Source of the DNA: Thermoplasmata archaeon | GTDB taxonomy: Archaea > Thermoplasmatota > Thermoplasmata > Lutacidiplasmatales > UBA184 | Assembly (NCBI GenBank): GCA_049799275.1 | Contig: JBARHO010000069.1 | Location: 1-53,953 of the forward strand | Direction of reading: 5' to 3' | Length of the DNA stretch: 53,953 bases | Made by a program: the position numbers and the translations under genes | The notes under the pieces: model-generated | What the model saw: only the letters and a program-made list of their open reading frames with translations | Database searches by the model: none | Told to the model about the DNA's origin: nothing | Shown: one piece after another, positions 22,033 through 38,026 of the stretch | Layout of the letters: the number at the start of each line of letters is the position of its first letter | Position numbering within the stretch: position 1 is the first letter of the stretch

Positions 22033-22782
22033 ATGGATCTTGAGGACCGTGTTGTCCTCGTTACCGGCGGATCCCGTGGGATCGGTCGCGCGATCGCCCT
22101 GGCCTGCGCCCGGGAGGGCGCGCATGTGGTGGTCGGGTATCGGCGGGATAGGACCGCCGCGTCCCGGACCTGCGCGGAGATCGAAGCGCTCGGCCGGCAG
22201 GCGCTCCACGTGGCCGCGGACGTCGCGGACCCGGATGCGGTCCGGCAGATGGTCGGTCAGGCGGGGGAATGGAGGTCGGCCCTGGACCATGTCGTCACCT
22301 CGGCCGGCACCTACGGGGGGGAGGCGACCGAGGGGACCGATCCCTCTTCGTGGAACGATATCGTGGACCCCGACCTCCGCGGCACGTTCTTTACGGTACG
22401 CGAGTCCATCGGTTGGCTGAAGCGCTCTCGCACCCCGTCGATCGTTCTCATCTCGTCGATCCTCGGATCCAAGGCGAGCGCGGGGGCGGTCCCCTACCAG
22501 GCCGCCAAGGCCGGCATCGAACAGATGGCCCGAGGCCTGGCGGTCGAGCTCGCACCCCATATCCGGGTCAGCGCCGTCGCACCGGGTTTCATCCGCACGG
22601 ACATGAACCGGGGCGGACACACCGATCCGATCTTTGCCCAACGGGTCGCTTCCGCGACCCCACTTCGGCGATGGGGAGAGCCCGAGGACGTCGCCGATGT
22701 GGTCGGTTGGCTGCTCAGCGACCGGGCCAGCTGGGTCACGGGCGCCGTGCTCGGGGTGGACGGAGGGATGGGACTGGAATGA
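22033..22782 (+). CDS. SDR-family oxidoreductase (FabG-like)
   Basis: VTGGSRGIGRAIA, the active-site YQAAKAG and a PGFIRTDM segment. Confidence 0.9.
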   Translation: MDLEDRVVLVTGGSRGIGRAIALACAREGAHVVVGYRRDRTAASRTCAEIEALGRQALHVAADVADPDAVRQMVGQAGEWRSALDHVVTSAGTYGGEATEGTDPSSWNDIVDPDLRGTFFTVRESIGWLKRSRTPSIVLISSILGSKASAGAVPYQAAKAGIEQMARGLAVELAPHIRVSAVAPGFIRTDMNRGGHTDPIFAQRVASATPLRRWGEPEDVADVVGWLLSDRASWVTGAVLGVDGGMGLE

Positions 22783-23552
22783 CCTCCGGCGAGGGCGGCG
22801 CCCCGGTCGCGTGGATCACCGGAAGCTCTCGGGGGATCGGCCGCGGGATCGCCCTCGAGCTGGCCCGGGAAGGGCTCGACGTCGCCGTCCACGCCTTCCG
22901 GTCCGCGGCCCAAGGGGAGGAGACCGTTCGACAGGTCGAGCGACTTGGTCGTCACGCCCGGCTGGTGGTCGGGGACGCCGGGGACCGGTCCGCGGTCCGA
23001 AGAATGACCGAGGAGGTCCTCGCGTTCCAAGGGCGACTGGATGTGGTCGTCGCCAACGGTGGGATCGCCGGCCCCTATGGGAAGGAGGAGGAGACGGAAC
23101 CGAGCTGGTCCGAGACCTTGCGGACGAATGCGCTCTCGATGCTCTGGCTGGCCCGGGAGACCCGGGATGCGCTCGCCGCACGACGGGGGTCACTGACCGC
23201 GGTCGCATCCATCGCTGGTCTCCGTACGAACCCGGAGGGTATTCCCTACGGAAGTTCGAAGGCGGTCGTCCTGTGGATGGTACGTTCCTTGGCCCTCCAG
23301 CTCGCCCCCGAGATCCGGGTCAACGCCGTGGCCCCGGGCTGGGTCGAGACCGACATGAGCTCGGAGGTGTGGGGTGACCCGGGATCAAGGGCGGAGGTCG
23401 AGCGCGGGACCCCGCTCGGCCGATGGGGACGTCCGGAGGATGTCGGTCGGGCCGTTGCCTTCTTGGCATCGGATCGAGCTCGCTTCGTGACCGGCCAGTC
23501 GTTGGTCGTCGACGGCGGAGCGAGCTTGATCTGGAGCCTGGCCCACGAGTAG
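22779..23552 (+). CDS. SDR-family oxidoreductase, second tandem copy
   Basis: Internal ATG of ORF 22269..23552, forming an ATGA overlap with the preceding stop. Contains ITGSSRGIGRGIA, YGSSKAV and PGWVETDM. Confidence 0.9.
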   Translation: MTSGEGGAPVAWITGSSRGIGRGIALELAREGLDVAVHAFRSAAQGEETVRQVERLGRHARLVVGDAGDRSAVRRMTEEVLAFQGRLDVVVANGGIAGPYGKEEETEPSWSETLRTNALSMLWLARETRDALAARRGSLTAVASIAGLRTNPEGIPYGSSKAVVLWMVRSLALQLAPEIRVNAVAPGWVETDMSSEVWGDPGSRAEVERGTPLGRWGRPEDVGRAVAFLASDRARFVTGQSLVVDGGASLIWSLAHE

Positions 23553-23697
23553 CGGCCTCTCCGGCCGGGGATCCGGTACGGACCCTCCGATGGATCGGTC
23601 CGAGGGCCAGGACGACCGGGGAGGATCCCGGCCCGTGGATCGAGGGTCCGCCCGGCCCAGTTCTATCGATGGGGCGGGGACACCCGTCCCAGCGAGC

Positions 23698-25359
23698 TCA
23701 TTCCGTGAACTTCCGCATCTCGGCATTGAACGGCCCAGCCCCGAACGGGCGCCCGGTGAGCTCCCGCAGACGGGTCCACCAATCGAACGACGTACCGTCG
23801 CGGAACCAGTGGCGAACGAGCCAAGGTCCGACGCGGGCGTTCGGCCAGAGCTCACCACCGACCTCCTCCCGGAGCGCCGCGTTGAGCGCGGGGCGGAGCA
23901 GTTCGGCGTAGACGTAGCTCGGCGAATAGAGCGGTGCCTCCACCACGAAGGAGTTCGCGAACGGGGGTCCACGGTACCGGTCGTATCCGAAGAGCCGGCG
24001 CGCGAAGCGGACGCCCGATTCCACCGGGTCCCGGTCCGGATGCAGGTAGAGCGTCAGTTCCTGCTGGACCCAGCCGGCCAACCAGGCCAGGGTCTGGAGC
24101 GGAGCGCGTCGTTCGTTCTCGATCGCGGCTTCGCGATGCTCTGAAGGCAGTCCGGGCCGTTCGCGGAGCCAACGCTCGGACGAAGCGATCTGCTCGAAGA
24201 ACCGGCCTTCGCCTTCCGCGAGCCCCGCAAATCCGGGGATGCCCTCGTGCCACCGGAGCAGGTGGGAGGTCGGTTGCCGGATCGATCGGGACGACAAGGC
24301 GTGACCGACCTCGTGGAAGAGGACGCGGTACTGGGACCAACCGCCGGCGGGCTGGATGACGACGCGGACGTCCTTCGGCGGGTCCGGCGCGAGGCAGAGA
24401 CCTCCCACCGCGAGATCGTGCCGATCGACGCGGAAGTGGAAAGCGCTGGGCGGGAACCCCCATCTTCGGATCCCGGCGACGATGGCGGGGAACATCGTTC
24501 CTCCGGGGAACGCGGTATCGGGGAGCCGGCGTTCCTGCTCCTCGGCGAACCGAAGGTCCCAGGGGTACCATCCCCGTTCATGGGTCCGGTCCTCGAACTG
24601 TTCTCTCCTTCGGCGCATCTCCCGCGGGACGAACCGAAGGGCGTCCTCCATCAGCACTTCGAGCCGGGGGACCGTGAACCCCTCCATGGAGAGCCGGTAC
24701 TCCGGGAAGGACCGATACCCGAGCTCGCGCGCGCGGTCGTTCCGGGCCGCCACCAGGGAGACCAGGTCCGCTTCGATCGGTCGGTACAAGGGTTCCTCGG
24801 CATAGAAGGCCCGTTCCCGCTCCCTCCGGTCCTCGGAGGTCCGTAGTGCCGCCCGTACGATGGCCCGACCGGTCCGACGGCCGTGCCACCGGGGCCGGTA
24901 TCCAGCGATCGCTCGCTGGAGACGGGCTCGACGTTGGACGATCTCCGCCGTTTGCTCGATCTGGGATTCCAGGACCGCTCGAGCGGCCAGCTCGAGGCGC
25001 CGCTGCAGAGGACCAGGTGGGCACCCCTCCCGGAGCTGACGGATCCGCTCCAGCGTTCCGGGAAAGGAAAGGAGCCGGTGCCGGCGGGTCTGATCGGTCG
25101 CCGAGCCTCGCATCGACCGGCCGGTGACGAGTTTCCACTCCGCCAGGAGGATGTGGCGATCGAGCGGCGCGAGCCTTCGCTCGAGGTCGTCGATGAACCG
25201 ACGAGCCTCGGTACGGCTCGCCCGACCCGTGGTCACGACCGTCCCCGAGACCGAACGACCGTTTATCCCTACAGGATCCGAGCACTGACCTGGGACGGGG
25301 ACCCGGTCATCCGTTCCGGGACCCGGGAGCTTCTGCTCCGCCTCGCCCTTTCTCGGCAT
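23698..25359 (-). CDS. HEXXH zinc metallopeptidase (M3/M2-like oligopeptidase)
   Basis: FHEVGHAL zinc motif in an ~550-aa all-helical protein. I chose an internal start because the maximal ORF (to 25452) would run through the tRNA-Leu gene and its promoter. The exact start is uncertain. Confidence 0.7.
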   Translation of the reverse strand: MPRKGEAEQKLPGPGTDDRVPVPGQCSDPVGINGRSVSGTVVTTGRASRTEARRFIDDLERRLAPLDRHILLAEWKLVTGRSMRGSATDQTRRHRLLSFPGTLERIRQLREGCPPGPLQRRLELAARAVLESQIEQTAEIVQRRARLQRAIAGYRPRWHGRRTGRAIVRAALRTSEDRRERERAFYAEEPLYRPIEADLVSLVAARNDRARELGYRSFPEYRLSMEGFTVPRLEVLMEDALRFVPREMRRRREQFEDRTHERGWYPWDLRFAEEQERRLPDTAFPGGTMFPAIVAGIRRWGFPPSAFHFRVDRHDLAVGGLCLAPDPPKDVRVVIQPAGGWSQYRVLFHEVGHALSSRSIRQPTSHLLRWHEGIPGFAGLAEGEGRFFEQIASSERWLRERPGLPSEHREAAIENERRAPLQTLAWLAGWVQQELTLYLHPDRDPVESGVRFARRLFGYDRYRGPPFANSFVVEAPLYSPSYVYAELLRPALNAALREEVGGELWPNARVGPWLVRHWFRDGTSFDWWTRLRELTGRPFGAGPFNAEMRKFTE

Positions 25360-25386
25360 CTCCAGAACCGCACGTTCGGGGTCGAG

Positions 25387-25409
25387 AATCCGAATGTTGA
25401 TATCGGATT
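25387..25409 (+). promoter_or_regulatory. candidate tRNA-Leu promoter (AT-rich box inside a 7-bp inverted repeat)
   Basis: AATCCGA-ATGTTGATA-TCGGATT. The TTGATAT box is centred about 30 nt upstream of tRNA position 1. Confidence 0.35.
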
Positions 25410-25428
25410 GCGAGTACAATGCGAACGC

Positions 25429-25513
25429 GCGGGGATCGCCCAGCTTGGTCAAAGGCGCCAGATTCAGGGTCTGGTCTCGTAGGAGTTCGTGGGTTCAAAT
25501 CCCTCTCCCCGCA
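25429..25513 (+). tRNA. tRNA-Leu (anticodon CAG), no encoded CCA
   Basis: Hand-folded. Acceptor stem GCGGGGA/TCCCCGC; perfect anticodon stem CCAGA/TCTGG with loop TT-CAG-GG; long variable arm (CTC-GTAG-GAG); T-arm GTGGG-TTCAAAT-CCCTC with one U-U mismatch; discriminator A. Confidence 0.85.
25492..25513 (+). repeat. direct repeat copy 1 (3' end of tRNA-Leu; attL-like)
   Basis: GGTTCAAATCCCTCTCCCCGCA is identical to 29682..29703. Confidence 0.9.
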
Positions 25514-25558
25514 TTTCCAATACTTGAACCCATGCAGGGTTCGAATCCCAGACCCGCA
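25514..25558 (+). repeat. junction module: hairpin plus degenerate third copy of the tRNA 3' end
   Basis: TTTCCAATACTTGAACCC-ATGCA-GGGTTCGAATCCCAGACCCGCA. By my alignment, 25538..25558 matches the 22-nt repeat at 17 positions with one gap. The layout parallels 29656..29703. Confidence 0.5.
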
Positions 25559-25681
25559 CCGGGGGCGGGCGATCCCTCGGCCGCTCGTCTCAAGCCCCCG
25601 TGTCTCGGCGCATTGTCCGATGGCCCGCGGTCTCCATGTCGCCGCGAAACCTATTAGGCCTATTGGAGTAATAGCAGTGCA

Positions 25682-25909
25682 ATGGCCGCCGTGAATGAGC
25701 GCATGACATCCATCACCCTTCCGCACAACGTGCGCAATCGATTGCGCGACTACCAAGTCGGAGGGAAGAGTGCGGCTCAAGCCATTGAGGACTTGATGGA
25801 TGAGATTCCCCCCGATTACTTTCGCCGTGACGTCCAACGCGCGTTGCTCCTTCCTCGGGAGTCGTTGGAGAGCTTCCGTAGGAGACATCGACTCTCGCAG
25901 TCACGCTGA
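25682..25909 (+). CDS. ribbon-helix-helix antitoxin (RelB/CopG-like)
   Basis: MTSITLPHNVRNRLRDY fits an RHH beta-strand plus helix. Its stop codon is immediately followed by the toxin ATG (TGAATG). An alternative start is at 25703. Confidence 0.65.
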   Translation: MAAVNERMTSITLPHNVRNRLRDYQVGGKSAAQAIEDLMDEIPPDYFRRDVQRALLLPRESLESFRRRHRLSQSR

Positions 25910-26272
25910 ATGTTCACCCTGGAATTCGCCGACCCAATTGCTGGTCAGAGCTTTGAGCGGCTCCCCCGTCGAGTGCAGAGTAGGTTCAATGAGGCGTTCG
26001 AGCACCTCGCGCAGCATCCGCGGTCCGCTTCCCCCGAACTGGATGTTCACCAGCTTTCGGGATACCAGAATGTCTGGACCTTGCGAATGCCCCCTTGGCG
26101 AGGGATCTACGCCATCGACGGAGATGACGTCGTCCTGATCGTCTTCGGACATCGGACGAGTGTGTACCCACTGCTGCACAGCCTTCTGCCTCCCGAGGGC
26201 CGGTACTTCACTCGGCCACCAAAGCGGGGGAGAGCGGTCAGAACACGCAGAACCCCGGAGCGTAAGCCATGA
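25910..26272 (+). CDS. RelE/ParE-family toxin
   Basis: LSGYQNVWTLRMPPWRGIYAIDGDDVVLIVFGHRTSVY matches the RelE/ParE C-terminal core (W-x-LR...YR-x-IY...I...HR). It has a basic C-terminal extension. Confidence 0.8.
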   Translation: MFTLEFADPIAGQSFERLPRRVQSRFNEAFEHLAQHPRSASPELDVHQLSGYQNVWTLRMPPWRGIYAIDGDDVVLIVFGHRTSVYPLLHSLLPPEGRYFTRPPKRGRAVRTRRTPERKP

Positions 26273-26379
26273 CAGGTACCCCCGGACGGGCGACTCTCGG
26301 AAGTGAACGAACCCCCCGACCCAATCATGGCCTAAATCGCCGCGGAATCCCCAAACACGGACCGTAAGGGTGATTTCGA

Positions 26380-27051
26380 TCAGGTAGGATCGCGAACGCC
26401 CCTCCCCGATTCCGGACTCATGGCGGGTGGTATCGGTGTCCGTTCGTCTACGACCCTCGCTGCCGGAGCGAGCAAGTAGCTTCCGTAACCAATCAGCCAG
26501 ATGAGCAGTGGGTACACGATGGCCCGTTCCCAACCCCCGCCGCCTAAAGTGGCCTGCACCAGCGGGGTGGAATATGCGCCGAACTCGATCCCCACGCTTG
26601 CGAGGCTCCTGACCCCGAGCGCGAGGGCGAAGTAGCGGAACGCCGATTCGATCCGTCGGTAGGACAGGATGGCCGCGAGCGGTCCGGGTACGAAGGCGAG
26701 CACGGCACCGACCGAGTGGACCACCACGTTGACGTTTTCCGGCGAGAGCACCGCGAGGAGCAGCCCCGCGCCGGGCAGAATGTTGAGGATCATTTCCCCG
26801 CGACTCCCCGTGCCCCGATAGAGGTAGTAGGCCCCGGCGATCCACGCGAGACCCGCAAGGAACAGTAGCGGCTCTCCCGCCCAGGCTGTGCGGGTGCCGA
26901 GCGCAAGTAGGTCGCTGATGGTGTTGCGGTGAACGCTGTAGCTGGAAGCGAGGGACTCCAGGACCGTGACCACGAGGAGGAATGTGACTCCCGCGAGGGT
27001 CAACAAGATCCCGGAGCGGTGGAGGTCTGGGGCGTCCGGTGGCGCCTGCAT
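26380..27051 (-). CDS. multi-pass membrane protein (DUF998-like)
   Basis: About 6 TM helices. Its start overlaps the upstream stop by 1 nt (TAATG). The family call is from memory only. Confidence 0.6.
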   Translation of the reverse strand: MQAPPDAPDLHRSGILLTLAGVTFLLVVTVLESLASSYSVHRNTISDLLALGTRTAWAGEPLLFLAGLAWIAGAYYLYRGTGSRGEMILNILPGAGLLLAVLSPENVNVVVHSVGAVLAFVPGPLAAILSYRRIESAFRYFALALGVRSLASVGIEFGAYSTPLVQATLGGGGWERAIVYPLLIWLIGYGSYLLAPAARVVDERTPIPPAMSPESGRGVRDPT

Positions 27052-27470
27052 TACTGCACCCCGGCCCGGCGTTCGCTCGAGCCGCCTTCCTGGAGGTCCT
27101 GTAGCCGGGCGCGCATCTCCTCTCGTGAGATTTCGCCGCGGGCGTAGCGGGCACGGACGATCCCTTCGGGGGGCGCCCGCCAGACTCTATCGGGCCATGC
27201 CCGCTGGCCCCGACCGCGCCAAGGCCGCAGAACAAAGAATACCAGCACCCAGACCAGTCCAAGACCGAGGGGGATGAGGAACCCGTACGGAGAGGCCGGG
27301 CCCGAGTACACTGGAGCGGCGATGATCCCAGCCCATGAGAGGTAGGTGAACACCGCCGCGAGCGCAAGGAGGGTTCCGATGACGGCGATGGGAATAATCC
27401 AGAACCGAGACGGCATCCGGCACTCGATCGGTCCAGTGTCGACCCCGGTGAGACCGGACATCGCGGTCAT
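27051..27470 (-). CDS. membrane protein with C-terminal SHOCT domain
   Basis: Two TM helices followed by IVRARYARGEISREEMRARLQDL (SHOCT consensus). I chose the start that forms an ATGA overlap with the SDR stop. Confidence 0.65.
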   Translation of the reverse strand: MTAMSGLTGVDTGPIECRMPSRFWIIPIAVIGTLLALAAVFTYLSWAGIIAAPVYSGPASPYGFLIPLGLGLVWVLVFFVLRPWRGRGQRAWPDRVWRAPPEGIVRARYARGEISREEMRARLQDLQEGGSSERRAGVQ

Positions 27471-28261
27471 CCCCACCCCGCCATCCGTCCACCGTCGACG
27501 AGGAGCGTCACGCCGGTCACAAAGCGTGCCGCGTCCGAGCCGAGCCACACCACGGCCTCCGCGACCTCCGCCCCCATGCCGAGACGCCGCATCGGAACTG
27601 CCTGTCGGGCCTGCTCCTGGTAGGTCTCCGGAAGCCCGCGCATTCGATGGGTCTCGATAGGCCCTGGGGCGACCGCGTTCACACGCACATTCCGCTGCGC
27701 GTAATCGATTGCCGCAGCCTTGCTAAGGCCGATCACCGCATGTTTGGCGGCCGTGTACGGACCCCCGCCGCGGAACGCCGAGATCCCGGCGGTCGATGAC
27801 ATATTGACAATCGCCCCGCCGCCGGTGGCAAGCAGGAGCGGTATCTCCTGCTGCATGGCACGGAAGGTTCCCCGAACGGTCACGCGGAAGACGAGGTCGA
27901 AGGTGGCAGGGGGCACGTCTGCGAGATCGGTGGGCGGGGCGCCCTCCCCGGAGTTGTTGAACGCGACGTCGAGCCGACCGAAACGGGTCCGAATCTCCGT
28001 TCCGAGTCGGTCGATCGATGCATCGTCCGTGAGGTCCAGCGGCACCACCAGCGCCTCTTGGCCGAGTTCCTGAATCTCCTGGGCGACGGTAGTGAGCCCC
28101 TCGACATCCCGGGAGGCGAGCACGACCGAGGCGCCTCGGCGGGCGAAGAGCCGGGCCGTGTCAGCACCAATTCCTTTGCTCGCGCCTACGACTAGGGCGA
28201 CCTTCGACTTGAACTGCCTCTCTTCGCCCGGTCCGGAAGACGGCGATGCATCGGTCATCAA
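27467..28261 (-). CDS. SDR-family oxidoreductase
   Basis: VVGASKGIGADTA, NNSG, YTAAKHAVIGLSK and PGPIETHR. Confidence 0.9.
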   Translation of the reverse strand: MMTDASPSSGPGEERQFKSKVALVVGASKGIGADTARLFARRGASVVLASRDVEGLTTVAQEIQELGQEALVVPLDLTDDASIDRLGTEIRTRFGRLDVAFNNSGEGAPPTDLADVPPATFDLVFRVTVRGTFRAMQQEIPLLLATGGGAIVNMSSTAGISAFRGGGPYTAAKHAVIGLSKAAAIDYAQRNVRVNAVAPGPIETHRMRGLPETYQEQARQAVPMRRLGMGAEVAEAVVWLGSDAARFVTGVTLLVDGGRMAGWG

Positions 28262-28333
28262 TATTAGATATACTGTAAACCTAAATAAGGCTAATGCCTT
28301 GATTCAAGTCACCCGACGTCTGCGGGAACGCGA

Positions 28334-29038
28334 ATGAGCCCTCGAAGGTACGACCTCGGACGAAGACGCGGTGCCTCGGAAGCGACCCGGACCCGGATTC
28401 TCGAAGCGGCACGCGAGCTGCTTGGCGGGAAGAGCGGTCCGGAAGAGTACTCCATGGATGCGGTCGCAGCTCAAGCGGGAGTCTCGCGCATGACCGTCTA
28501 TAACCAGTTCCGCTCCGAGGTCGGCCTACTGGTTGCACTCGCAGACCTGCTCGCAGCTCGGGGGGGTATGGCTCGGATGCCCGAGGTGTTCCTCGAGAGA
28601 CGGCCGGCCGAGGCGATACGGAAGTTCGTCGCCGTGTTCGTAGGTTTCTGGGCCTCCGATAGGGTGTTGTTGCGGCGCCTGCGCGCGCTCGGTGTGCTGC
28701 GCCCCGGACTCTACAGGTCCCTGCGTGAGCGGGACTCGTGGAGGCGTGAGGGAGCAAAGACACTCATCCACCGGATTCGATCGGCAACGCGTCTCCAGAT
28801 GGACGAGGACGCCACGGTCGATCTCTTGACGAGCTTGACGAGCTTCGAGACGTTCGACTCGATCTCCGCCGACGACAAGAGCCCCGATGAGGTCGCCCTC
28901 TTCCTAACGAGCGCGATTCTCCTCTTCTTCGGACTGCGCGGGGACCGGCGCTCTTCCAACCCGGTCCGTCAGCTCCCGAAGGCGGTCGCTCCATCCCACT
29001 CGCCCAGAGCAGGCCCCCGGCGGCAGGCCGGACCATGA
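28334..29038 (+). CDS. TetR/AcrR family transcriptional regulator
   Basis: TRTRILEAARELL...YSMDAVAAQAGVSRMTVYNQFRSE is a TetR HTH. It is divergent from the SDR across a 72-nt AT-rich gap (28262..28333) that contains AAGGCTAATGCCTT. Confidence 0.9.
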   Translation: MSPRRYDLGRRRGASEATRTRILEAARELLGGKSGPEEYSMDAVAAQAGVSRMTVYNQFRSEVGLLVALADLLAARGGMARMPEVFLERRPAEAIRKFVAVFVGFWASDRVLLRRLRALGVLRPGLYRSLRERDSWRREGAKTLIHRIRSATRLQMDEDATVDLLTSLTSFETFDSISADDKSPDEVALFLTSAILLFFGLRGDRRSSNPVRQLPKAVAPSHSPRAGPRRQAGP

Positions 29039-29505
29039 TCCGAGTCGAAGTTCAGCGGGAGCTGACGGCCGCTGCGGACGGCGTCTGGATGATTGTCGCG
29101 GCCACGGATGATGAGCCCCGGTACTGGCCGGGGCTATCGGAGCTGCGCACGGTGCGACGCGAGGGGCTCGTTAGCGAACGAGAAGTTTCCGTGCGGCGCG
29201 GTCCGCTCGGGAAGATGAGGAGCCGCCAGCGGATCGAACTGCGGCCGGAGCGGACGACCGTACTACTGACGATGACCGGAGGGCCGATGCACGGAACGCG
29301 GTCCATTGTCATCTCCTCCCTCGGGCCAACGCGAACGAGCATTGACGTCGTTTGGGAGGTCCGCATCGAGGGGATGCCGAGATTTGCCGAACGGTTCGTT
29401 GAAACGAGCCTCCGAGGTACCACACGAATAGCGCTCGACCGGATCGGAGAACTGGCCTTGAAACGCCTTCCCTCGATGGCTCCGCGGAATCTTGTCCCCT
29501 CATGA
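29035..29505 (+). CDS. SRPBCC (polyketide cyclase/dehydrase-like) protein
   Basis: ATGA overlap with the TetR stop. Size and beta-rich pattern (VWMIVAATDDEPRYWPGL...IDVVWEVRIEG) fit the START/SRPBCC fold. Confidence 0.7.
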   Translation: MIRVEVQRELTAAADGVWMIVAATDDEPRYWPGLSELRTVRREGLVSEREVSVRRGPLGKMRSRQRIELRPERTTVLLTMTGGPMHGTRSIVISSLGPTRTSIDVVWEVRIEGMPRFAERFVETSLRGTTRIALDRIGELALKRLPSMAPRNLVPS

Positions 29506-29665
29506 GCCGACGAGCCAATCGTCTGCGGATCCCTTCGGGACTGCGGGGGCGACCGCCGCGGCGGAGTCGCCGAGCGCATCACTGTCCAGATCTAACCTGA
29601 GGGCTTCGGACACACTCCTAGAGTTCCAGGTCAGACCTTGGACGGTGGAGAGCACTTTCCATAAT

Positions 29666-29690
29666 ATTTGAACCGCCGGGCGGTTCAAAT
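29666..29690. repeat. perfect 25-bp palindrome overlapping the right-hand direct repeat
   Basis: ATTTGAACCGCC-G-GGCGGTTCAAAT. The right arm is the T-arm/T-loop-like start of the repeat, and the left arm is its exact inverted complement. Confidence 0.9.
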
Positions 29691-29703
29691 CCCTCTCCCC
29701 GCA
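29682..29703 (+). repeat. direct repeat copy 2 (orphan tRNA-Leu 3' end; attR-like)
   Basis: GGTTCAAATCCCTCTCCCCGCA is identical to 25492..25513. No GCGGGGA acceptor 5' strand or anticodon arm lies upstream, so it is not a tRNA gene. Confidence 0.9.
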
Positions 29704-29949
29704 CGGGACCCATGCTACCGAAGATCTTGCGCGTACTCGAAACCACGGGCGGATCAGATCCCAACTTCCACCCGAACTCGCGTCCCCGTATCGAACGGCC
29801 CGCGTCGAACCTATTCGACCTTGTACCAGATGGGGCGGGGCGTCCGTCCCTGGCCGGGTACACGCGCGCCTACTGCACTTGGCCCATGGCGACGTGGATC
29901 GTCGCCTCGTCCCGGTCGTGACGCTGACCGGCCCTGGTCGATGAACGGG

Positions 29950-29958
29950 TCTATATCA
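29950..29958 (+). promoter_or_regulatory. TATA-like box
   Basis: TCTATATCA is centred about 33 nt upstream of the ATG at 29987. The same box type and spacing occur at PhoU (52614..52628). Confidence 0.4.
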
Positions 29959-29986
29959 CCGGGCCGGGTTCCTACACCCGGACCCG

Positions 29987-31407
29987 ATGCGCCCACCGGA
30001 AACGCGATACGCGAAGAGCGGCGATCTCCGCATCGCCTATCAAGTGCTCGGCGAGGGCCCGGTTGACGTTGTTCTAGCTCCCGGAACGATCGGGGTTACT
30101 GAGCTATATTGGGATGAGCCGGCGTTCGCGGGGTTCCTCACGGAGCTCGCTTCGTTCTCTCGCCTCATGATCTTCGACGTACGAGGGACCGGTCTTTCGG
30201 ACCGACCTCCTTCGGTCGCGACGCTCGAAGAGCGAGTGGACGACATTCGCGCGGTCATGGACGCGGTCGGGTCGCACCGGGCGGTCCTGATGGGGCTCTC
30301 CGAAGGGGCGACGATGAGCGTTCTGCATGCCGCGGCCCATCCGGACCGGACCGCGGGGCTCATCCTCTGCGGCGGCCTCGCGAAATCGGTCCGTTCCGCC
30401 GATTACCCGTGGGGGTGGATCCCCGACCAGGTGGAGCGAGAGCTCGAGACCGCGGCCGATCGCTGGGGAACCCGCAGGACTGTCGCGCGTTCGCGAACGT
30501 GCTCGGCCCGAGCCGGGCCAATGATGAGCGGTTCGTAGAATGGGTCGGTCGGCTCGAGCGCTTCACGGCGCCTCCGGGGTGGGGAGCTCAACTTCAGAGG
30601 ATGCTCACAGAGGTCGACATCCGATCGATCTTGCCTTCGATCCATGTCCCCAGTCTCGTGCTCCACTCTCAGGGCGATCAAGTAGCGGAGGTCGGACAAG
30701 GGAGGTACCTGGCCGAGCACATCCCCGGGGCACGCATGATCGAGCTACCGGGCGCGGACCATCTGTTCTGGTTCAACCCGACGGATTGTGCGACGGGGCT
30801 TCGCGAGGTGCGGAGGTTCCTGCGGGAGCTCGAGGGACCGACGGACCTGGACCGGGTGCTGGCGACCGTGGTGTTCACCGATATTGTCGATTCCACTCGG
30901 CGCGCGGCGGCACTGGGAGATCGCGCCTGGAGCCTGCTTCTCGACCGACACGTCGCCATGGCCCGAGCTTCGCTGGTCCGATTTCAGGGAAAGGAGGTCA
31001 AGCTCACGGGGGATGGAATGCTCGCGACATTCGATGGTCCCACGCGGGCGGTTCGATTCGCCGAGGCATTACGGGCCGATAGCCAGAAGTTGGGCCTACT
31101 TATTCGAGCGGGGCTGCACACCGGCGAATGCGCCTTCAAAGAGAGTGACGTGCTGGGCATCGCCGTGCATCTGGCGGCGCGGATAGCGGAAAAGGCCGGG
31201 GACGGTGACATTCTGGTCTCGAGCACGGTGCGTGATCTTTCCGTGGGGTCGGATCTGCGTTTTCGCGATCGTGGGATGCGAAGCTTCAAGGGCGTCCCTG
31301 GCCGCTGGCGGCTCTACTCACTGGAGACGGATCTGGTGGTTCACTCAGGCAGGGACCCTTCTTTGTCCCCGCCTCTCGACCGTGGGGCGACGCGTTCGAC
31401 CCCATAG
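29987..31407 (+). pseudogene. alpha/beta-hydrolase::class III adenylate/guanylate cyclase fusion, interrupted by a -1 frame change near 30465
   Basis: ORF 29987..30538 carries the hydrolase N-terminal half (nucleophile GLSEGA). ORF 30409..31407 continues the same hydrolase domain (HSQGDQV, GADHLFW) and then the cyclase domain (VVFTDIVDST, LTGDGMLATF, GLHTGE). The frames switch within CGCTGGGGAACCC. Confidence 0.75.
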
Positions 31408-31686
31408 GTCACGCGTGCGAAAAAAGGGTCCTCCCCGGTCGGAGGTCTCGAGAGCGGGCAAATCCGCCCGTAGTCGGGAAAGGAGGACTCGAGCCCCCGC
31501 GGGAAGGCCCGCGAGCTCGAGCTCCGGCTCGGATGTCTCCGGGGCCGCTTCCACCGGTCCGCTCGTTCCGGCGAGAGGTCTCTTCGCGCGCCAGCGATCG
31601 CTCGCTTGGATTCCGACGGAGCGGGAGTGACGATTCCGATCCCCGCTTCCTGCGTAGCCAGCACGGGGAACGGAAGGCCCCGCGGC

Positions 31687-32157
31687 CTAGCCCTTTCCCT
31701 TGCCCGATGCGAGCATCTCCTTGTCGATGAACTCCCGGAAGCTGGGGTCGAACCACTGCCCCAGATCCAGTTCGACCCAGTCCCGTCCGACCGTGCCCTG
31801 TGCAAAGTCATTTCGGATCCACTGCCGCCATCCGATCCATTCGTTGTCGCTGATGATCTTTCGCTCGCGCATGTGATACGCGTGAGCGCTGACCAGGGCC
31901 ACCATGTACGCGATCACGTGCTCCGGCTGTGAACCGGACATCGGCCCCGCCACCACGCTGATCAGGTCGGGCTTCTCGAGCAGTAGCTCGCTGATCCGGT
32001 ACCTCTTTTCGTCCAGATCGTTCAGGACCCTGGACCCGACATCCACGGTCATGGCCCGAACTTGTCGCTTCGCAAAGTAGAGTGTCAGGATCAGGCTCCC
32101 GATGATGCCCGCCGTTTGCGCCAGGGTCAGCCAATCGGAGAATCCAAGGGTCCCCAT
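31687..32157 (-). CDS. single-pass membrane protein, unknown function
   Basis: N-terminal TM helix (LAQTAGIIGSLILTLYF) and a Trp-rich helical soluble part (DNEWIGWRQWIRNDF). It lies 212 nt downstream of the TPR cyclase on the same strand. Confidence 0.55.
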   Translation of the reverse strand: MGTLGFSDWLTLAQTAGIIGSLILTLYFAKRQVRAMTVDVGSRVLNDLDEKRYRISELLLEKPDLISVVAGPMSGSQPEHVIAYMVALVSAHAYHMRERKIISDNEWIGWRQWIRNDFAQGTVGRDWVELDLGQWFDPSFREFIDKEMLASGKGKG

Positions 32158-32369
32158 GTGCGAGAGAGGAGCCGGTGGTTCAAGAAGGGTGGCCAGCTTT
32201 CTCTTGGTGCGCTCGGAACGCTAGGCTCTCGTGACCCCACCTAGGACACGACCGACCGCTTTTTCCCGCTTGGTTCGAGCCCACAGTACTTCTCGACCTA
32301 GGCTGGCCGCTCGTCGCGCCCACTCCGTTTCCTGATCCTGCGTCGCCGATGCTCTGCCCACGGTAGGGC

Positions 32370-34409
32370 TCATTCCGGAGCGCGAGGGCCAAGATCGGTA
32401 GAAGAGCTGGGAGGAACGAGCTGGTCATCAGATCGTCGAGAGCGCGATCCGCTCGGCGCAAGCAGGCCCATGTCTCGCTGAAGTTCGATGAATCGGGGAT
32501 CCGCCCTCAGGAAATCGAACATCGGATCGATATTGATCTTGGCCAGAGTGCTGGCCTTGAGCTCAAAGGCCCTCCGGAGCCAAGCCATCGTCGCCGTCTT
32601 GTCCTGGAGGCCGACGAAGGCGATGGCGACATTGAACGGCGAGATGTATCGACCGGAAGAACCGTGCTCGAGCTCGGAGATGAGCTGTCGCGCTTCGTCC
32701 GTCCTCCCGACGATCCCGTACGCGTACGCGAGGTACGCCTTGGCCAGCAGCCCGCCGTGTGAGAGGGCGAGCGCCTTTTCCATCGCCTCCACGCCCTTCT
32801 CGTACATGGTCTTCTGGAGGTAGGTCTTGCCGAGCTTGATGAAGGCCGGTACGAATCCCGGGTCGATCTCGAGGAGCTTGTGGCACTCCTCGATGGCCGA
32901 ATCCGTATCGTTCGCGCTCCGATAGATCTCCGCCGCACAGTCGTGCACGCCCACGGAGTACGGGTCCAGTTCCTCGGCCCTCCTGATCTCGGCCACGGCC
33001 TGGGGCAGGCGACCTCGGAGGGCCAGATGGACGGCGTACGAGTTGCACAGCACCGACCAATTGGGATTGAGCTCGATCGCGCGCTTGAATCCCTTCTCCG
33101 CGGCCTCCCAGTCCCACAGATAGTTCTGCAACAGCTGGGCCCCGGTCGCATGGGCCTCGGGAAGTTGATCGTCGAGCGCCAAGGCCTTCGCCACGAGCGG
33201 TTGGATCTGGTGATACGCCTGCGTCGCATCGGCACAGCCCTCATCGCAGAGACCGATGTGGCAATCCGCGAGACCGACGTAGGCGAGCGCATAGTTCGGG
33301 TCGACCCGGATGGCCTCCTCAAAGAGCTGGATCGCGGTCCGCAGCTCCGCCTCGGTGCCCTTGTGCCAGTGATATCGCCCCTTGAGGACCAGATCGTGCG
33401 CATCCCTATTGGTGGTCGGACGCTTTTCGATCTTCTCCTTTTCCTCGGGAAGGAGGGTGACCTTGAGCGCCTCCAGGACCCGCTGGGCGATATCGCTCTG
33501 GATCGCGAACACGTCCAAGAGGTCCCGGTCGTAGGTCTGCGACCAAAGGTGATCATCGCTCTCCGTATCGATGAGCTGGACGGAGATCCGGACCCGGTTA
33601 CCGGCCTTGCGAACGCTCCCTTCCAGGATCGATCCGACGTTCAATTCCCTCCCGATCTCCGGGACGCTCTTGACGGTATCCTTGTACTTGAGCGCCGAGG
33701 TCCTCGAGATGACCCGAAGGCCGCTCACCATGCAGATGCTGGAGATCAGTTCCTCGGTGAGCCCCTCCGAGAAGTACTCATCGGACCCGCCGGACAGATT
33801 GGCCATGGGAAGGATGGCCACTCGGCGCTTGTCGCGGCCCCGGCCGGTAGGGACCTTGGGGAGCGACGACCCGGCGGACCCCTTCTCCCAGGGGGTCACG
33901 ATCACCTTGAAGACCTCCATGGGCAGTTCGACGTTCTTGAGCTGAACTCGTCCCAGACTGACCACGGGGCTCTCCAGTTTGTTGCGGATGAGATGGTACA
34001 CCTGCTCCGTAACGCACACCCCACCGGGTTCGGCCAACGGCTCGATGCGGGAGGCGACGTTGACCGCGTCCCCGTGGATGTCGCCCTCCGTATGGAGCAC
34101 GTCACCCGTATGGATCCCGATCCGGACCTGGATCGGCCGGTTGCTCGTCGAGGCCACATTCCTCCCCCGGATCGCGCTCTGGATCGCGACCGCACACCTC
34201 ACGGCGTCGAGAGCGCTGGCGAACTCGACCAGAAAGCCGTCCCCGATGGTCTTGACCTCGGTCCCGCCGTATCGGCCGAACGTGCTCCTCAGGATCCTCC
34301 TCTGCTCGGAGAGGAGCTGCATCGCGAACGATTCGTTCTCCTGGGCCAGCGCGGTGTAGCCGACGAGGTCGGTGAACATGATGGCGACGAGGCGTCGGGA
34401 TGCGGCCAC
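32370..34409 (-). CDS. class III adenylate/guanylate cyclase with TolB-N-like and TPR domains
   Basis: VAIMFTDLVGYT, VKTIGDGFLVEF, IGIHTGDV and GDAVNVASRIE form the cyclase core. RVAILPMANLSGG...FSEGLTEELI follows, then about 7 TPR repeats. Confidence 0.9.
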   Translation of the reverse strand: MAASRRLVAIMFTDLVGYTALAQENESFAMQLLSEQRRILRSTFGRYGGTEVKTIGDGFLVEFASALDAVRCAVAIQSAIRGRNVASTSNRPIQVRIGIHTGDVLHTEGDIHGDAVNVASRIEPLAEPGGVCVTEQVYHLIRNKLESPVVSLGRVQLKNVELPMEVFKVIVTPWEKGSAGSSLPKVPTGRGRDKRRVAILPMANLSGGSDEYFSEGLTEELISSICMVSGLRVISRTSALKYKDTVKSVPEIGRELNVGSILEGSVRKAGNRVRISVQLIDTESDDHLWSQTYDRDLLDVFAIQSDIAQRVLEALKVTLLPEEKEKIEKRPTTNRDAHDLVLKGRYHWHKGTEAELRTAIQLFEEAIRVDPNYALAYVGLADCHIGLCDEGCADATQAYHQIQPLVAKALALDDQLPEAHATGAQLLQNYLWDWEAAEKGFKRAIELNPNWSVLCNSYAVHLALRGRLPQAVAEIRRAEELDPYSVGVHDCAAEIYRSANDTDSAIEECHKLLEIDPGFVPAFIKLGKTYLQKTMYEKGVEAMEKALALSHGGLLAKAYLAYAYGIVGRTDEARQLISELEHGSSGRYISPFNVAIAFVGLQDKTATMAWLRRAFELKASTLAKINIDPMFDFLRADPRFIELQRDMGLLAPSGSRSRRSDDQLVPPSSSTDLGPRAPE

Positions 34410-34632
34410 GGCCCGAGAACGGCGCTCGTCAGATTAAGCCCCCGGTCACGGAAGAGGCCCTGATCCGTCCGGGCCCCGCATGCTCCCCTCTCCCCAGAAC
34501 TGGGCCAGGGATCCCGCACCCCGTGGTATCTTCGAACTCGGATGGCTTGGCCACCTTAGATCGAGCAGTTGAGGTGTGCGCATGGAGGCACCACGCACGC
34601 GGTCCAGACCGCCTGCCCGCGGTCGTGCCCGG

Positions 34633-35886: not shown

Positions 35887-36294
35887 TCGGACCTCCGCCC
35901 GTCGACCTCGAGCTCCTTGTGGCGCTCCGATCAGCGGCCCACGATCAGGAGCTCCTGGGCGCTCGACCAATGCGGATCCCGATCGTTCCCACACTCGTGC
36001 TCCCGTCCCCACGGGGTGACGCGTATCTCGCTCGAGCTCGCTTAAATTCGAAGCGCTCGACAGGATACGACACTGGAACTGTCGCGTCGGGCTCTCCTCC
36101 CCGCTACGTTGCCCTGGGTCCGACCGAGACCCAAGTGACCCTCGACCACCTCGGAGGGAAGCAAGGCCCGGTCCGGGAGCAGGGCTATCAGTACTTGGAC
36201 GATGCTTGGGGAAGTGTGCTCGAGCTGCACGGGACCCGGTTGCCGATGGGAGAGCACCCGTTGACCCGGGACGGGAGCAAGCTCGGTACCTAGC

Positions 36295-36681
36295 GTGAAC
36301 GTTCCGGTCACGACGAAGGATCCCGGGGTCGATGCGTACATCGCTCGATGCCCCGCGGCTATCCGAAGCCGGCTTCAGGCCATACGGAGGGCGATCCGGG
36401 TCGTGGCGCCGGATGCTACCGAGGTGATCAGCTACAGCATGCCCGGCTATTGCTATCCAGGTTACGCGTACAAGGGGATGTTCGTGTGGTTCGCCCTCCA
36501 AAAGGGCCATATCGGCCTCTACGTGCGACCGCCGACCGTGGCTACCCACCGGCAAGAACTGGCAGGGTACGGGACCACCAAGTCGGCAGTACACCTTCCC
36601 CTCGAAGGGAAGCTACCCGTCCGGCTCATCCAGACACTCGTCCGGACCAGCGTCCGGGTCATGAAGGAGAGAAAACGGTGA
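36295..36681 (+). CDS. DUF1801 (YdhG-like) domain protein
   Basis: GTG start. DAYIARCPAAIRSRLQAIRRAI...VISYSMPGY...FALQKGHIGLY fits DUF1801. Confidence 0.7.
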   Translation: MNVPVTTKDPGVDAYIARCPAAIRSRLQAIRRAIRVVAPDATEVISYSMPGYCYPGYAYKGMFVWFALQKGHIGLYVRPPTVATHRQELAGYGTTKSAVHLPLEGKLPVRLIQTLVRTSVRVMKERKR

Positions 36682-36820
36682 GCGGTCACGGCACGCAGAA
36701 CGGCGCTCCCTCCTACCCCGCGATCGCTCGGAACCCATGCGCTCGGATGCGAGGAAGCAGCGGCCGCGCATCCTCCCGTTCCCGGGGTCGGCCATCCGGG
36801 ACGGCGCCCGGGACCCACGA

Positions 36821-37792: not shown

Positions 37793-38026
37793 CGATGCAT
37801 GCAGAGGCCCCGCATATTAATCATCGCCAATCTAGGACCCCGCGCTGTAAAACGAGGTGGAGCTGCCGGGGCACATGTCGGCGACCCGGCGACGGTCCGT
37901 GATCGCGATGCTCGAGCTCGGGAGGCTCGCGGGCCGATCACGCTGGGCGCCCGATCCGGACCACACGGGTAGACCTTGGCCCTCGTCGTACGAAATGTGC
38001 CCGAAGGCGGGGATGCGGACGGTGGG

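Follow-up and report, generated by a model that had tools for sequence, protein, structure and literature searches.

A toxin–antitoxin islet without a recombinase gene at the 3' end of a tRNA-Leu(CAG) gene in a Thermoplasmata archaeon: a probable CIME-like integrative cassette

The window, i.e., the whole 53,953-nt stretch of DNA from an uncultured Thermoplasmata archaeon that was analysed, has a single tRNA gene according to ARAGORN, a tRNA-Leu(CAG), which Rfam model RF00005 also matched at full length (44.5 bits), the T and D stems each having one non-standard pair. Directly 3' of this gene is an islet of 4,190 bp (25514..29703) with seven genes, which ends in a second copy of the tRNA 3' end. 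The features of the locus are as follows.

25429..25513, plus strand: tRNA-Leu(CAG), the integration target, intact after insertion, CCA not encoded (ARAGORN, Rfam)
25492..25513, plus strand: attL core, 22 nt at the 3' terminus of the tRNA, beginning with the penultimate base of the 5' T-stem strand and closing with the discriminator base
25514..25558, plus strand: left arm, with ACTTGAACC (25522..25530), a 7-nt spacer and GGTTCGAAT (25538..25546), which runs into a pseudo tRNA 3' end, GGTTCGAATCCCAGACCCGCA (25538..25558)
25640..25681, plus strand: conserved block AACCTATTAG-GCCTATTGG-AGTAATA just 5' of the antitoxin start, from an alignment of ten left ends; putative promoter/operator
25682..25909, plus strand: antitoxin, 75 aa, putative ribbon-helix-helix type
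25910..26272, plus strand: RelE/ParE-superfamily toxin, 120 aa, start codon immediately after the antitoxin stop
26365..29603: lineage-specific cargo, ~3.2 kb, comprising the next five genes
26380..27051, minus strand: DUF998 membrane protein (Pfam)
27051..27470/27548, minus strand: membrane protein with a weak SHOCT-like C-terminus (sub-threshold Pfam)
27467..28261, minus strand: SDR (Pfam)
28334..29038, plus strand: TetR (Pfam)
29035..29505, plus strand: SRPBCC (Pfam)
29604..29681, plus strand: right arm, ending in ATTTGAACC (29666..29674) and the spacer GCCGGGC (29675..29681)
29682..29703, plus strand: attR core, where the tRNA 3' end recurs, 22/22 identical
29733..29767, plus strand: host flank, with what may be a relic left arm, TACTCGAAACC-ACGGGC-GGATCAGATCC

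The 22-mer, GGTTCAAATCCCTCTCCCCGCA, is present in exactly two copies in the window, both on the plus strand, and the count remained at two when three mismatches were allowed. None of 100 shuffled sequences had any match to it, and the repeat, being exact and absent from the shuffles, is non-random. No 5' tRNA half precedes the copy at 29682, as judged by ARAGORN, Rfam and the sequence itself. The duplication of the tRNA 3' end in the same orientation, and the lack of a 5' half at the right copy, had been proposed in a preliminary description of the locus, and both were confirmed here. Across 82 fetched loci, among them relatives with the same tRNA-Leu(CAG) at the syntenic position, the 22-mer was confined to tRNA-Leu(CAG) genes or the far ends of inserts, which rules out a dispersed genomic repeat.

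Pfam supported the earlier identification of the toxin, DUF998, SDR, TetR and SRPBCC genes above its thresholds, whereas the SHOCT match fell short (16.7 bits versus a cut-off of 27). The toxin is the best characterised of these by sequence, with matches to Pfam ParE_toxin (31.9 bits versus a cut-off of 23), a PHROG RelE-like toxin (E 9.6e-08) and PDB entry 3bpq_B, RelE3 (E 4e-4). Its homologues fell into 47 clusters, and source names that identify an organism were mostly Thermoplasmata. The antitoxin is 79–89% identical among cassettes at tRNA-Leu and had no match in Pfam, PHROG or NCBIfam. Its assignment to the ribbon-helix-helix type, also made earlier, is only weakly suggested by RHH_5 matches at E 0.087 in three of ten homologues, a match to MazE4 5xe3 at E 0.42, and a single-sequence AF2 model (pLDDT 65) with helices at residues 15–26 and 31–38. 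The cargo is bounded by the points at which homology to the minimal cassette L008 ends (26364) and restarts (29604). Homologues of the DUF998, SHOCT-like and SRPBCC genes were absent from the loci fetched to that point, except for five loci from the same population as the window (L001–L005).

A Pfam scan of 46 ORFs across the window detected no recombinase family; the precomputed Pfam table of L001 was the sole basis for identifying the GlnA, AsnC, DeoC, amidohydrolase and pseudouridine-synthase genes along with a few short ORFs. The scanned ORFs of the cassettes described below likewise had no recombinase genes (Pfam, PHROG, NCBIfam), and neither Cas1 nor a transposase was found in the window or the cassettes. 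This agrees with the earlier statement that no integrase, excisionase or split-integrase remnant is visible. Non-coding DNA at the islet ends measures 168 nt (25514..25681) and 176 nt (29506..29681), as had been reported; the latter is the largest non-coding gap and too small for a hidden recombinase remnant. Three window ORFs of 114–349 aa (10695..11744, 31687..32157 and 49466..49810) had no family match, and Pfam may overlook divergent archaeal recombinases.

An empty site, for which the preliminary description had proposed an in-silico test, was found in L006, a relative with ~90% DNA identity to the window (92% protein identity in its M3 peptidase). In L006 the tRNA is joined straight to the DNA that lies 3' of the right repeat in the window, with one 22-mer. 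Its two matches, to 23479..25513 (91.9%) and 29682..30096 (87.5%), overlap solely in that 22-mer. A second occupied/empty pair is formed by L064 and L066: relative to L066, L064 has a 2.70-kb element, here called element X, between the tRNA core and its toxin–antitoxin cassette, and the core is duplicated. The junctions in both pairs lie exactly at the 22-bp core. These data support precise insertion at the tRNA-Leu(CAG) end and the attL/attR footprint proposed in the preliminary description. The perfect 22/22 repeat is only weak evidence that insertion was recent; a rough, uncomputed estimate is that ~1.4 neutral substitutions would be expected since the split from L006.

Composition, which had been called indecisive, proved informative. 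GC3 of the toxin and antitoxin genes (0.67–0.68) is under that of all 40 background genes (minimum 0.718), and the tetranucleotide distance of the islet was matched by just 1 of 100 windows of the same size. In all loci GC3 of the toxin–antitoxin pair was below that of housekeeping genes.

Homologous antitoxin/RelE-type toxin pairs were found beside the same tRNA in at least 12 other Thermoplasmata loci (L008, L013, L064–L072, L075), with either tRNA-Leu(CAG) itself or an internal core copy immediately 5' of the pair. In most of these loci the far boundary is another tRNA 3' end, in many cases degenerate, 1.0–4.2 kb away, giving cassettes of ~1.0 to 4.2 kb. The commonest conserved unit is the two arms plus the toxin–antitoxin pair, and other cassettes hold different inserts between the toxin gene and the right arm; that this unit recurs, and that the remaining five islet genes are lineage-specific cargo, had been missed previously, as had the conserved palindromic arms, the third tRNA-3'-end-like copy at 25538..25558 and the possible relic arm.

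The cassettes have non-coding arms in common, with palindromes that resemble a tRNA T arm (TTGAACC-N7-GGTTCRAAT). At the right end of the islet, ATTTGAACC, GCCGGGC and the start of the attR core form a 9-7-9 palindrome. The right arm is conserved 5' of the distal repeat in ten cassettes (nhmmer E 9e-18 for the window, whose sequence was among the ten that went into the model). The left arm of the window aligns with the left ends of homologous cassettes, including element X (E 2.3e-07, the window being one of eight model-building sequences). Element X has both arms and no toxin–antitoxin pair. The arms contain indels, have stops in every frame in some elements, and show uncompensated changes in the palindromes; they look like non-coding DNA sites.

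Comparison of four-fold sites revealed that the toxin–antitoxin genes of L008, L064 and L066 are 95–98% identical, whereas the adjacent DeoC, GlnA and peptidase genes of these hosts are saturated (53–57%). For the window versus this trio, the values were 62–68% for the toxin–antitoxin genes and 44–50% for housekeeping genes. Near-identical toxin–antitoxin genes in hosts with saturated housekeeping genes indicate that the cassettes move horizontally between species to the same tRNA site. The counter-case raised earlier, that all relatives share the seven genes with host-like composition and phylogeny and no empty alleles, does not describe these loci: relatives without the genes and empty alleles exist, the toxin–antitoxin composition is atypical and its phylogeny conflicts with that of the hosts. 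Tandem arrays were also observed, in which newer cassettes had entered at the tRNA-proximal position beside older ones. Outside the trio, synonymous sites are saturated in most cassette pairs, and many copies could therefore be old ones passed on vertically.

Overall, we consider that the islet is probably a non-autonomous, CIME-like integrative cassette that entered the tRNA-Leu(CAG) 3' end by conservative site-specific recombination, with its recombinase encoded elsewhere. Its circular form would have an attP of ~110–130 bp, in which the 22-bp core lies between the right and left arms and four T-arm-like 9-mers alternate in orientation. Recombination of attP with the tRNA gene would restore the tRNA at attL, with the original 3' end displaced to attR. 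A crossover 3' of the T loop, inside TCCCTCTCCCCGCA, is probable: 14 of the 25 distal-core mismatches are in T-loop positions 6–8, a clustering that fits attP-derived sequence to the left of a crossover lying further 3'. Because a recombinase gene is missing from the cassette, an enzyme acting in trans would have to carry out both integration and excision, most likely a tyrosine integrase of the host or of another element that uses the same tRNA-Leu site, working directly or via tandem accretion and co-excision with a helper. Approximately 20 kb of context was available per relative, and helper elements >10 kb away would be missed. The toxin–antitoxin pair at the tRNA-proximal end presumably serves as an addiction module, making loss of the cassette costly, and variable cargo, here the DUF998, SHOCT-like, SDR and TetR–SRPBCC genes, would be accommodated in a slot that separates the toxin gene from the right arm.

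The preliminary description had left three options: decay, mobilisation in trans, or machinery that is not obvious. The family-level evidence favours mobilisation in trans of an integrase-less form over the other two. Decay would mean that a larger, integrase-bearing element lost its integrase and most genes, that the immobile remnant was fixed by toxin–antitoxin addiction and inherited vertically, and that a deletion between the 22-bp repeats produced the L006 allele. Decay into att-flanked remnants is well documented (PMC5704250), and the lack of an integrase in the window scan, the many toxin–antitoxin pairs that have diverged as much as their hosts, and the degenerate distal cores (3–5 mismatches in L008, L072 and L066; no clear attR in L075 or L013) would all be accounted for. 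We nonetheless find it unlikely: it is the integrase-less form itself that is near-identical in three saturated hosts, both arms are conserved well beyond the surrounding non-coding DNA in at least ten cassettes with differing cargo, new cassettes entered beside older ones, and independent decay would not arrive each time at an identical minimal layout of 1 kb.

Copying of the cassette between genomes by ordinary homologous recombination that follows DNA uptake or cell fusion, with no dedicated recombinase, is a poorer prospect still. The 85–88-nt tRNA is nearly invariant across hosts, the core, arm and relic copies on the right side could provide short homology, and between L064 and L066 the block of high identity begins precisely at the core and stops just past the toxin gene, short of the right arm. 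But the right flanks are saturated between hosts that share near-identical cassettes, both occupied/empty pairs have their junctions exactly at the core, and conservation of the palindromic arms is left unexplained.

It is very improbable that the toxin–antitoxin pair mobilises the cassette through an unrecognised recombination role, or that host XerA acts on dif-mimicking 9-7-9 palindromes, as in IMEX elements. The inverted 9–11-mers around a 7-nt spacer in the arms do resemble Xer or core-type sites. Archaeal XerA can catalyse integration in vitro, but the dif spacer is 6 nt (PMC8371274). The target tRNA is not dif, and the spacers differ between arm (GCCGGGC) and tRNA (GTTCGTG). The pair is the sole gene set common to most cassettes, but element X manages without it, and the toxin is an ordinary RelE/ParE family member. 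That the repeat is a transposase target-site duplication, as in non-autonomous casposons, some of which are reported to target the 3' ends of tRNAs in certain Euryarchaeota, a Thermoplasmatota relative among them, is hardly credible: one empty-site copy and two occupied-site copies also fit staggered-cut transposition, but the ends are related as direct repeats with no terminal inverted repeats beyond the internal palindromes (inverted scores 9–11 versus a null of 7.6–8.2 ± 1.5, maxima 13–16), neither Cas1 nor a transposase was found in the window or cassettes, and distal cores that differ mainly in the T loop fit attP heterology better than a decaying duplicated target.

The proposed trans-mobilised cassette shares traits with several known systems. 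As in type II RelE/ParE modules, a small antitoxin gene is followed directly by a gene for a RelE/ParE-fold toxin, an identity backed by the Pfam, PHROG and PDB matches. General descriptions of toxin–antitoxin loci present them as mobile but give them no defined vehicle, whereas the module here carries its own site-specific attachment arms. Toxin–antitoxin cassettes are also common in chromosomal arrays of integron gene cassettes, which they are thought to stabilise. Integron cassettes resemble those described here in being small and recombinase-less, with an imperfect palindromic end site and serial insertion at a single entry point, newest nearest. They differ in that here no IntI lies beside the entry point, which is a tRNA 3' end and not attI, the palindromes by inspection fail the attC core motifs RYYYAAC and GTTRRRY (TTTGAAC, GTTCAAA), each cassette comes with an upstream region of its own, and the observed arrays comprise just 1–3 units. 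Integrons have been reported in Archaea (PMC9668308).

CIMEs (cis-mobilizable elements) of Streptococcus, in the account given in PMC5704250 (citing Pavlovic 2004 and Bellanger 2011), accrete in tandem at the 3' ends of tRNAs and genes. They too are flanked by attL and attR, lack integration and transfer genes, sit in tandem with other elements at one att site, and rely for mobilisation on the recombinase of another element, as would the cassette. CIMEs are described there as decay products of ICEs/IMEs with identified integrases, whereas the cassette has no known parent element or integrase, its host is an archaeon, and its integrase-less form is a coherent, horizontally spreading family whose minimal unit is 1 kb and whose members have a slot for cargo and palindromic arms that are conserved. 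Toxin–antitoxin stabilisation of an integrated mobilisable island is cited in the same source for SGI1, and such a pair is likewise found on the cassette. Archaeal tRNA-integrating elements use tyrosine integrases of the SSV ("suicidal") and pNOB8 (classical) types (PMC8371274, PMC7253208), and they also target the 3' part of a tRNA, regenerate it and are bounded by a direct repeat of its 3' end. Those elements carry an integrase gene, either undivided or as int(N) and int(C) parts, one at each end; the cassette has neither, and its arms are non-coding, with no ORF consistently spanning the reconstructed attP. Gene fragments of tRNAs are a general by-product of such integration (PMC9897764).

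The flank to the right of the repeat may itself retain a relic left arm (29733..29767), a possibility with modest support. L006, the relative with the empty site, has this sequence too; its offset and orientation are as expected, and the left-arm nhmmer model matched it at E 0.009 in the window and 0.091 in L006. The alignment of left ends and a repeat comparison add to the evidence. Downstream of it, AACCTATTCGACCT (29808..29821) resembles the block upstream of the antitoxin gene.

The window has a single tRNA gene, a tRNA-Leu(CAG) at 25429..25513 on the forward strand (ARAGORN), which matched the Rfam tRNA model over its full length with 44.5 bits. Its last 22 nt, GGTTCAAATCCCTCTCCCCGCA, are present at 25492..25513 and again at 29682..29703 in the same orientation, with 22 of 22 positions identical. 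The preliminary description had reported this perfect, same-strand repeat of the tRNA 3' end and the lack of a 5' tRNA half before the second copy, and both observations were borne out. There are exactly two copies of the 22-mer in the window, no further copy being found there at up to three mismatches and none in 100 shuffles, and tRNA and Rfam searches found no 5' half in front of 29682..29703. The islet (25514..29703) is bounded, therefore, by a direct repeat of the tRNA 3' end, with the intact tRNA gene at one end. In the cmscan alignment, one D-stem pair of the tRNA was non-standard, and its T stem (GUGGG/CCCUC) had U opposite U at the second pair. At that T-stem position the tRNA-Leu genes of three fetched loci (L007, L012 and L014) have a G, giving a G-U pair; the U-U mismatch is common to most other relatives and is thus a lineage trait rather than damage caused by integration.

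Named-organism homologues of the M3-type peptidase flanking the islet were all from Thermoplasmata archaeon, and a relative with an empty site was found in JGI contig Ga0642876_0053840 (L006), whose peptidase is 92% identical to that of the window. L006 397..2431 aligned with window 25513..23479 at 91.9% identity and L006 2..418 aligned with window 30096..29682 at 87.5% identity. The 22-mer is all that these two matches have in common, and the tRNA is joined directly to the right flank of the window. This indicates that the 4,190 bp at 25514..29703 represent a discrete insertion, or a precise loss in the relative, bounded by the repeat. The reading of the two copies as attL and attR had been offered along with a proposed empty-site test, and that test, run here, upheld it, as L006 has a single 22-mer and exact junctions. 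The composition of the islet agrees with a foreign origin: the GC3 of its toxin-antitoxin genes (0.67–0.68) is below that of all 40 background genes, and its tetranucleotide distance was reached by only 1 of 100 windows of the same size.

The islet was also present in other data from the source population. A 658-kb contig (L001; ENA ERZ25039507 contig_12365) corresponds to the window with 99.8% identity, and the same islet was found on short Logan contigs from three runs (SRR28024218, SRR28061326 and SRR28041439). Right of attR, 29987..30538 and 30409..31407 of the window are overlapping halves of an alpha/beta-hydrolase-adenylate cyclase gene that is intact (473 aa) in L001, but in L001 the SDR and TetR genes are broken. 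These split genes look like indel errors, different in each of the two assemblies, rather than real pseudogenes. One Logan contig (L005; SRR28041439_85462) follows window 27901..29619 with 100% identity but departs from it at 29619/29620, and its next 28 nt (1720..1747) have no other occurrence in the window or the fetched loci. The break coincides with the start of the right-arm homology at 29604, and the junction may reflect strain variation, or it may mark a recombination seam between cargo and arm. A look-up with the SRPBCC protein returned no new contigs for this junction.

The principal features of the islet are as follows.

25429..25513 (+), tRNA-Leu(CAG)
25492..25513, attL core, the last 22 nt of the tRNA
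25522..25546, left arm
25682..25909, antitoxin of 75 aa, its stop at 25909 abutting the toxin start at 25910
25910..26272, RelE/ParE toxin (Pfam ParE_toxin 31.9 bits, cut-off 23)
remainder of the islet, a DUF998 protein, a membrane protein with a SHOCT-like tail, an SDR and a TetR-SRPBCC pair
29682..29703, attR core, the second copy of the 22-mer

The genes previously listed between the repeats agree with our ORF and Pfam check, with two of the domain labels being weaker. The RelE assignment stood (ParE_toxin, 31.9 bits), the SHOCT-like match was sub-threshold, and the RHH label of the antitoxin was weakly supported. Matches bearing on a ribbon-helix-helix fold were weak: three of ten homologues hit RHH_5 (E 0.087), a MazE4 hit had E 0.42, and the AF2 single-sequence model of the antitoxin had a pLDDT of 65. 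The toxin, by comparison with known proteins, also matches the PHROG family "RelE-like toxin" and, among solved structures, RelE3 from Methanococcus jannaschii (3bpq_B, E 4e-4). With a toxin above the family threshold and a small antitoxin gene directly upstream, the pair has the features of a type II RelE/ParE system.

Searches with the peptidase alignment in GTDB genomes and with the toxin in metagenomes revealed that the islet belongs to a family. Immediately downstream of tRNA-Leu(CAG), or of an internal copy of the core, the Thermoplasmata loci L008, L013, L064–L072 and L075 carry a homologous antitoxin/toxin pair, with 79–89% identity to the window antitoxin and 73–87% to the toxin. Most of these loci have a second tRNA 3' end downstream, with 0–5 mismatches, and the inserts range from ~1.0 kb (L066) through 1.4 kb (L008, L072), 2.0 kb (L067) and 2.56 kb (L069/L070) to the 4.19 kb of the window. 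More distant toxin-antitoxin homologues (57–63% identity; L076–L081) are not located at a tRNA and lack the cassette ends described below, which confines the association with the tRNA to the closer subfamily.

The ends of the cassettes are conserved non-coding arms. A right arm precedes every distal core copy (consensus CAC.TTcCAcGaTATTTGAACCgcCGGGCgGTTC...TCCCTCTCCCCGCA), and within it ATTTGAACC together with the start of the core forms a 9-7-9 palindrome. The left arm, just inside attL, has the form TTGAACC-N7-GGTTCRA(A/G)TCC; in the window its continuation, up to 25558, is a pseudo 3' end of a tRNA. It is followed by a conserved CCTATTAG-CCTATTGG block just upstream of the antitoxin start. 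Indels distinguish the arms of different elements, some of which have stops in all frames, and changes in one half of the palindrome are uncompensated in the other half; together these features suggest that the arms are protein-recognized DNA sites rather than coding sequence or RNA structure. An RNA-structure role in particular was rejected on the uncompensated changes and because Rfam found only the tRNA in 25000..30200.

Between the arms, the toxin-antitoxin pair is accompanied by a variable slot. Relative to the minimal cassette of L008, the window has homology only at 25426..26364 and 29604..29704; by this alignment, the intervening 3.2 kb (DUF998, SHOCT-like protein, SDR, TetR and SRPBCC) is cargo. 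No homologues of the DUF998, SHOCT-like or SRPBCC proteins were present in the loci fetched by that stage. In the same slot, L069 has 1.66 kb more than L071/L072, encoding a 400-aa protein, L008 has an extra 380 bp compared with L066, and L067 has a transglutaminase-like protein. Other units occupy the same site, and those of L064 (element X), L014 and L009 combine arms of this kind with a different gene content. In L064 a 2.70-kb unit with the same kind of arms, element X (6872..9575), lies between the tRNA and the toxin-antitoxin cassette; it has no toxin-antitoxin pair but encodes a 420-aa secreted/surface protein and a 199-aa membrane protein, neither with Pfam or PHROG matches. L014 has a 780-bp unit (9010..9788) at tRNA-Leu with a distant, DUF7557/VapB-like antitoxin and a RelE-like toxin, L012 (9073..9781) has left-arm-like sequence followed by a 132-aa ORF without a Pfam match, and L009 has a 1.4-kb unit (1144..2539) whose direct repeat reaches ~21 nt past the tRNA (GAGCGGATTTGAACCCATGGG).

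Four-fold degenerate sites, analyzed in place of an uninformative protein-level correlation (host versus toxin-antitoxin identity, Spearman 0.17–0.20, not significant), provided evidence of horizontal spread. The toxin-antitoxin genes of L008, L064 and L066 are 95–98% identical at these sites, whereas identity in the neighbouring DeoC, GlnA and peptidase genes of those contigs is 53–57%, which is saturation. Hence the cassette reached these three hosts, where it occupies the same tRNA in each, long after the hosts had diverged. The window toxin-antitoxin genes were 62–68% identical to those of the three loci at four-fold sites (host genes 44–50%), and those of other pairs were saturated.

L064 and L066 form a second occupied/empty pair with exact junctions: relative to L066, L064 contains the 2.70 kb of element X as a clean insertion that separates the tRNA core from the toxin-antitoxin cassette, and its core is duplicated. 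The order in L064 is tRNA, element X, arm and core, toxin-antitoxin cassette, and in L068 an arm and perfect core are followed directly by a toxin-antitoxin cassette. These arrangements indicate that new units enter beside the tRNA and older ones are pushed outward. In the window, 29733..29767, to the right of the repeat, aligns with the left arm (E 0.009) and is also present in L006 (E 0.091); this modest similarity suggests that it may be a relic of an older cassette.

The absence of an integrase from the window, remarked on in the preliminary description, held among the 46 window ORFs scanned with Pfam, none of which matched a recombinase family; five housekeeping genes were identified only via the precomputed Pfam table of L001. 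The seven islet proteins and the ORFs of six other cassettes likewise gave no recombinase family, the cassettes of differing gene content (element X, L014 and L009) contain none, and the non-coding gaps of the islet, at most 176 nt, are too short to hide a recombinase. No parent element carrying an integrase was found in the 82 loci or IMG/VR. In IMG/VR, scans with the core and arm pattern, the toxin and the antitoxin returned nothing relevant, a relaxed-core scan returned only jumbo-phage tRNA arrays (L073, L074), a general-palindrome scan returned only an unrelated 32% GC contig (L082), and no viral or plasmid attP was found.

We propose that the cassettes move by conservative site-specific recombination between the 3' end of the tRNA, the region reportedly preferred by archaeal integrases (PMC8371274), and an attP of ~110–130 bp that consists of right arm, core and left arm. 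Mismatches of the distal cores to the tRNA are concentrated in T-loop positions 6–8 (14 of 25; P ~8e-7 under a uniform model, in which related elements are treated as independent although they are not). This cluster is compatible with a crossover on the 3' side of the T loop, predicted to lie within TCCCTCTCCCCGCA, in which case the T-loop part of attR would be derived from attP. The reconstructed attP has four T-arm-like 9-mers in alternating orientation, and these are candidate recombinase binding sites. The integrase-less form has spread although no recognizable recombinase is present in the cassettes or scanned window ORFs, and the enzyme is therefore likely supplied in trans. It might act directly, or the cassette might be co-excised with a helper integrated in tandem, and the toxin-antitoxin pair presumably penalizes cassette loss.

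Among described elements, the streptococcal CIME comes closest; it is defined by the retention of attL and attR with loss of the genes for integration and transfer (PMC5704250). The islet likewise retains attL/attR and has no integration or transfer genes, and its family shows the tandem accretion at the same att site seen in CIMEs (L064, L068), the window itself having only the weak relic arm. It differs in its archaeal host and in that no parent element was found (82 loci, IMG/VR), CIMEs being products of the decay of an identifiable ICE, IME or other element with an integrase. On balance, we think it somewhat probable that these elements are, as a whole statement, a non-autonomous, CIME-like integrative cassette family of Thermoplasmata, most members being built on a RelE-type toxin-antitoxin pair, with a recombinase acting in trans. 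Within this statement, action in trans is far less certain than the discrete insertion and the membership in a family.

A broader reading is that recombinase-less units with T-arm-mimicking palindromic ends are serially inserted at the tRNA-Leu(CAG) 3' end by a dedicated recombinase encoded elsewhere, a tRNA-anchored form of cassette capture. We consider this reading unlikely. If true, the system would be a functional analogue of the integron with a different entry site, cassette sites and enzyme, and toxin-antitoxin cassettes would be its commonest, stabilizing members, with a defined vehicle for horizontal movement. The family does resemble integrons in the serial capture of palindrome-ended units next to an entry point, and integrons themselves have been reported in Archaea (PMC9668308). 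By the usual criteria the islet is not an integron cassette: there is no IntI among the scanned window ORFs, and the arm half-sites TTTGAAC and GTTCAAA, read from the sequence, do not fit the attC motif RYYYAAC ... GTTRRRY. An SSV-type ("suicidal") element, in which integration splits the integrase gene into int(N) and int(C) at the two ends, was rejected: no conserved ORF spans the reconstructed attP, the attP junctions of five cassettes have stops in the corresponding frames, the arms vary by indels, and there is no room for an int(C). A casposon or transposon with target-site duplication was also rejected, as no Cas1 or transposase domain and no terminal inverted repeats were found, the inverted-end alignment scores of 9–11 being within the shuffle range (means 7.6–8.2, sd 1.5, maxima 13–16). 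An IMEX, which uses host Xer at dif, does not agree with a target at a tRNA-Leu 3' end.

Islets that are flanked by att sites and lack an integrase are commonly written off as dead remnants. In this case, the form without an integrase makes up a coherent family: its ends are conserved, it has a slot for cargo, and it has clearly spread between species in recent times. To us the CIME-like family has the look of a design that is maintained, not of debris. This would imply a so far undescribed recombinase in uncultured soil Thermoplasmata that serves elements with which it does not travel. The family also offers a testable vehicle (arms and core, ~110–130 bp) for the long-assumed mobility of toxin-antitoxin modules, and identifies tRNA-Leu(CAG) as a hotspot of gene gain in a lineage without cultured members. 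The models of the arms and core built here could help in the search for the helper enzyme and in marking tRNA fragments that mislead annotation.

The regions on both sides of the tRNA had variations of their own. Upstream, two tandem SDR genes at 22033..23552 of the window, between DeoC and the M3 peptidase, are absent in the syntenic loci L007 and L008, and the peptidase is missing in L066, L067, L069 and L075, so that DeoC abuts the tRNA; the upstream side is therefore also variable. On the other side, window 29704..50000 is a variable region with genes for cyclases, phosphoesterases, glyoxalases, AlkZ-like, ArsR-AHSA1, DUF1330 and GNAT proteins, and the distance from the Fe-ADH and PhoU genes to the tRNA is ~20 kb in the window versus ~4.4 kb in L008. 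The distant toxin-antitoxin homologues of L076–L081 sit in similar accessory regions. Three ORFs on the reverse strand of the window (10695..11744, 31687..32157 and 49466..49810) have gene-like GC3 and no Pfam match; the first two had no NCBIfam match, and the second had no PHROG match. A relative of the 156-aa protein encoded at 31687..32157 may lie beside the tRNA in another fetched locus, L020, based on similarity judged by eye.
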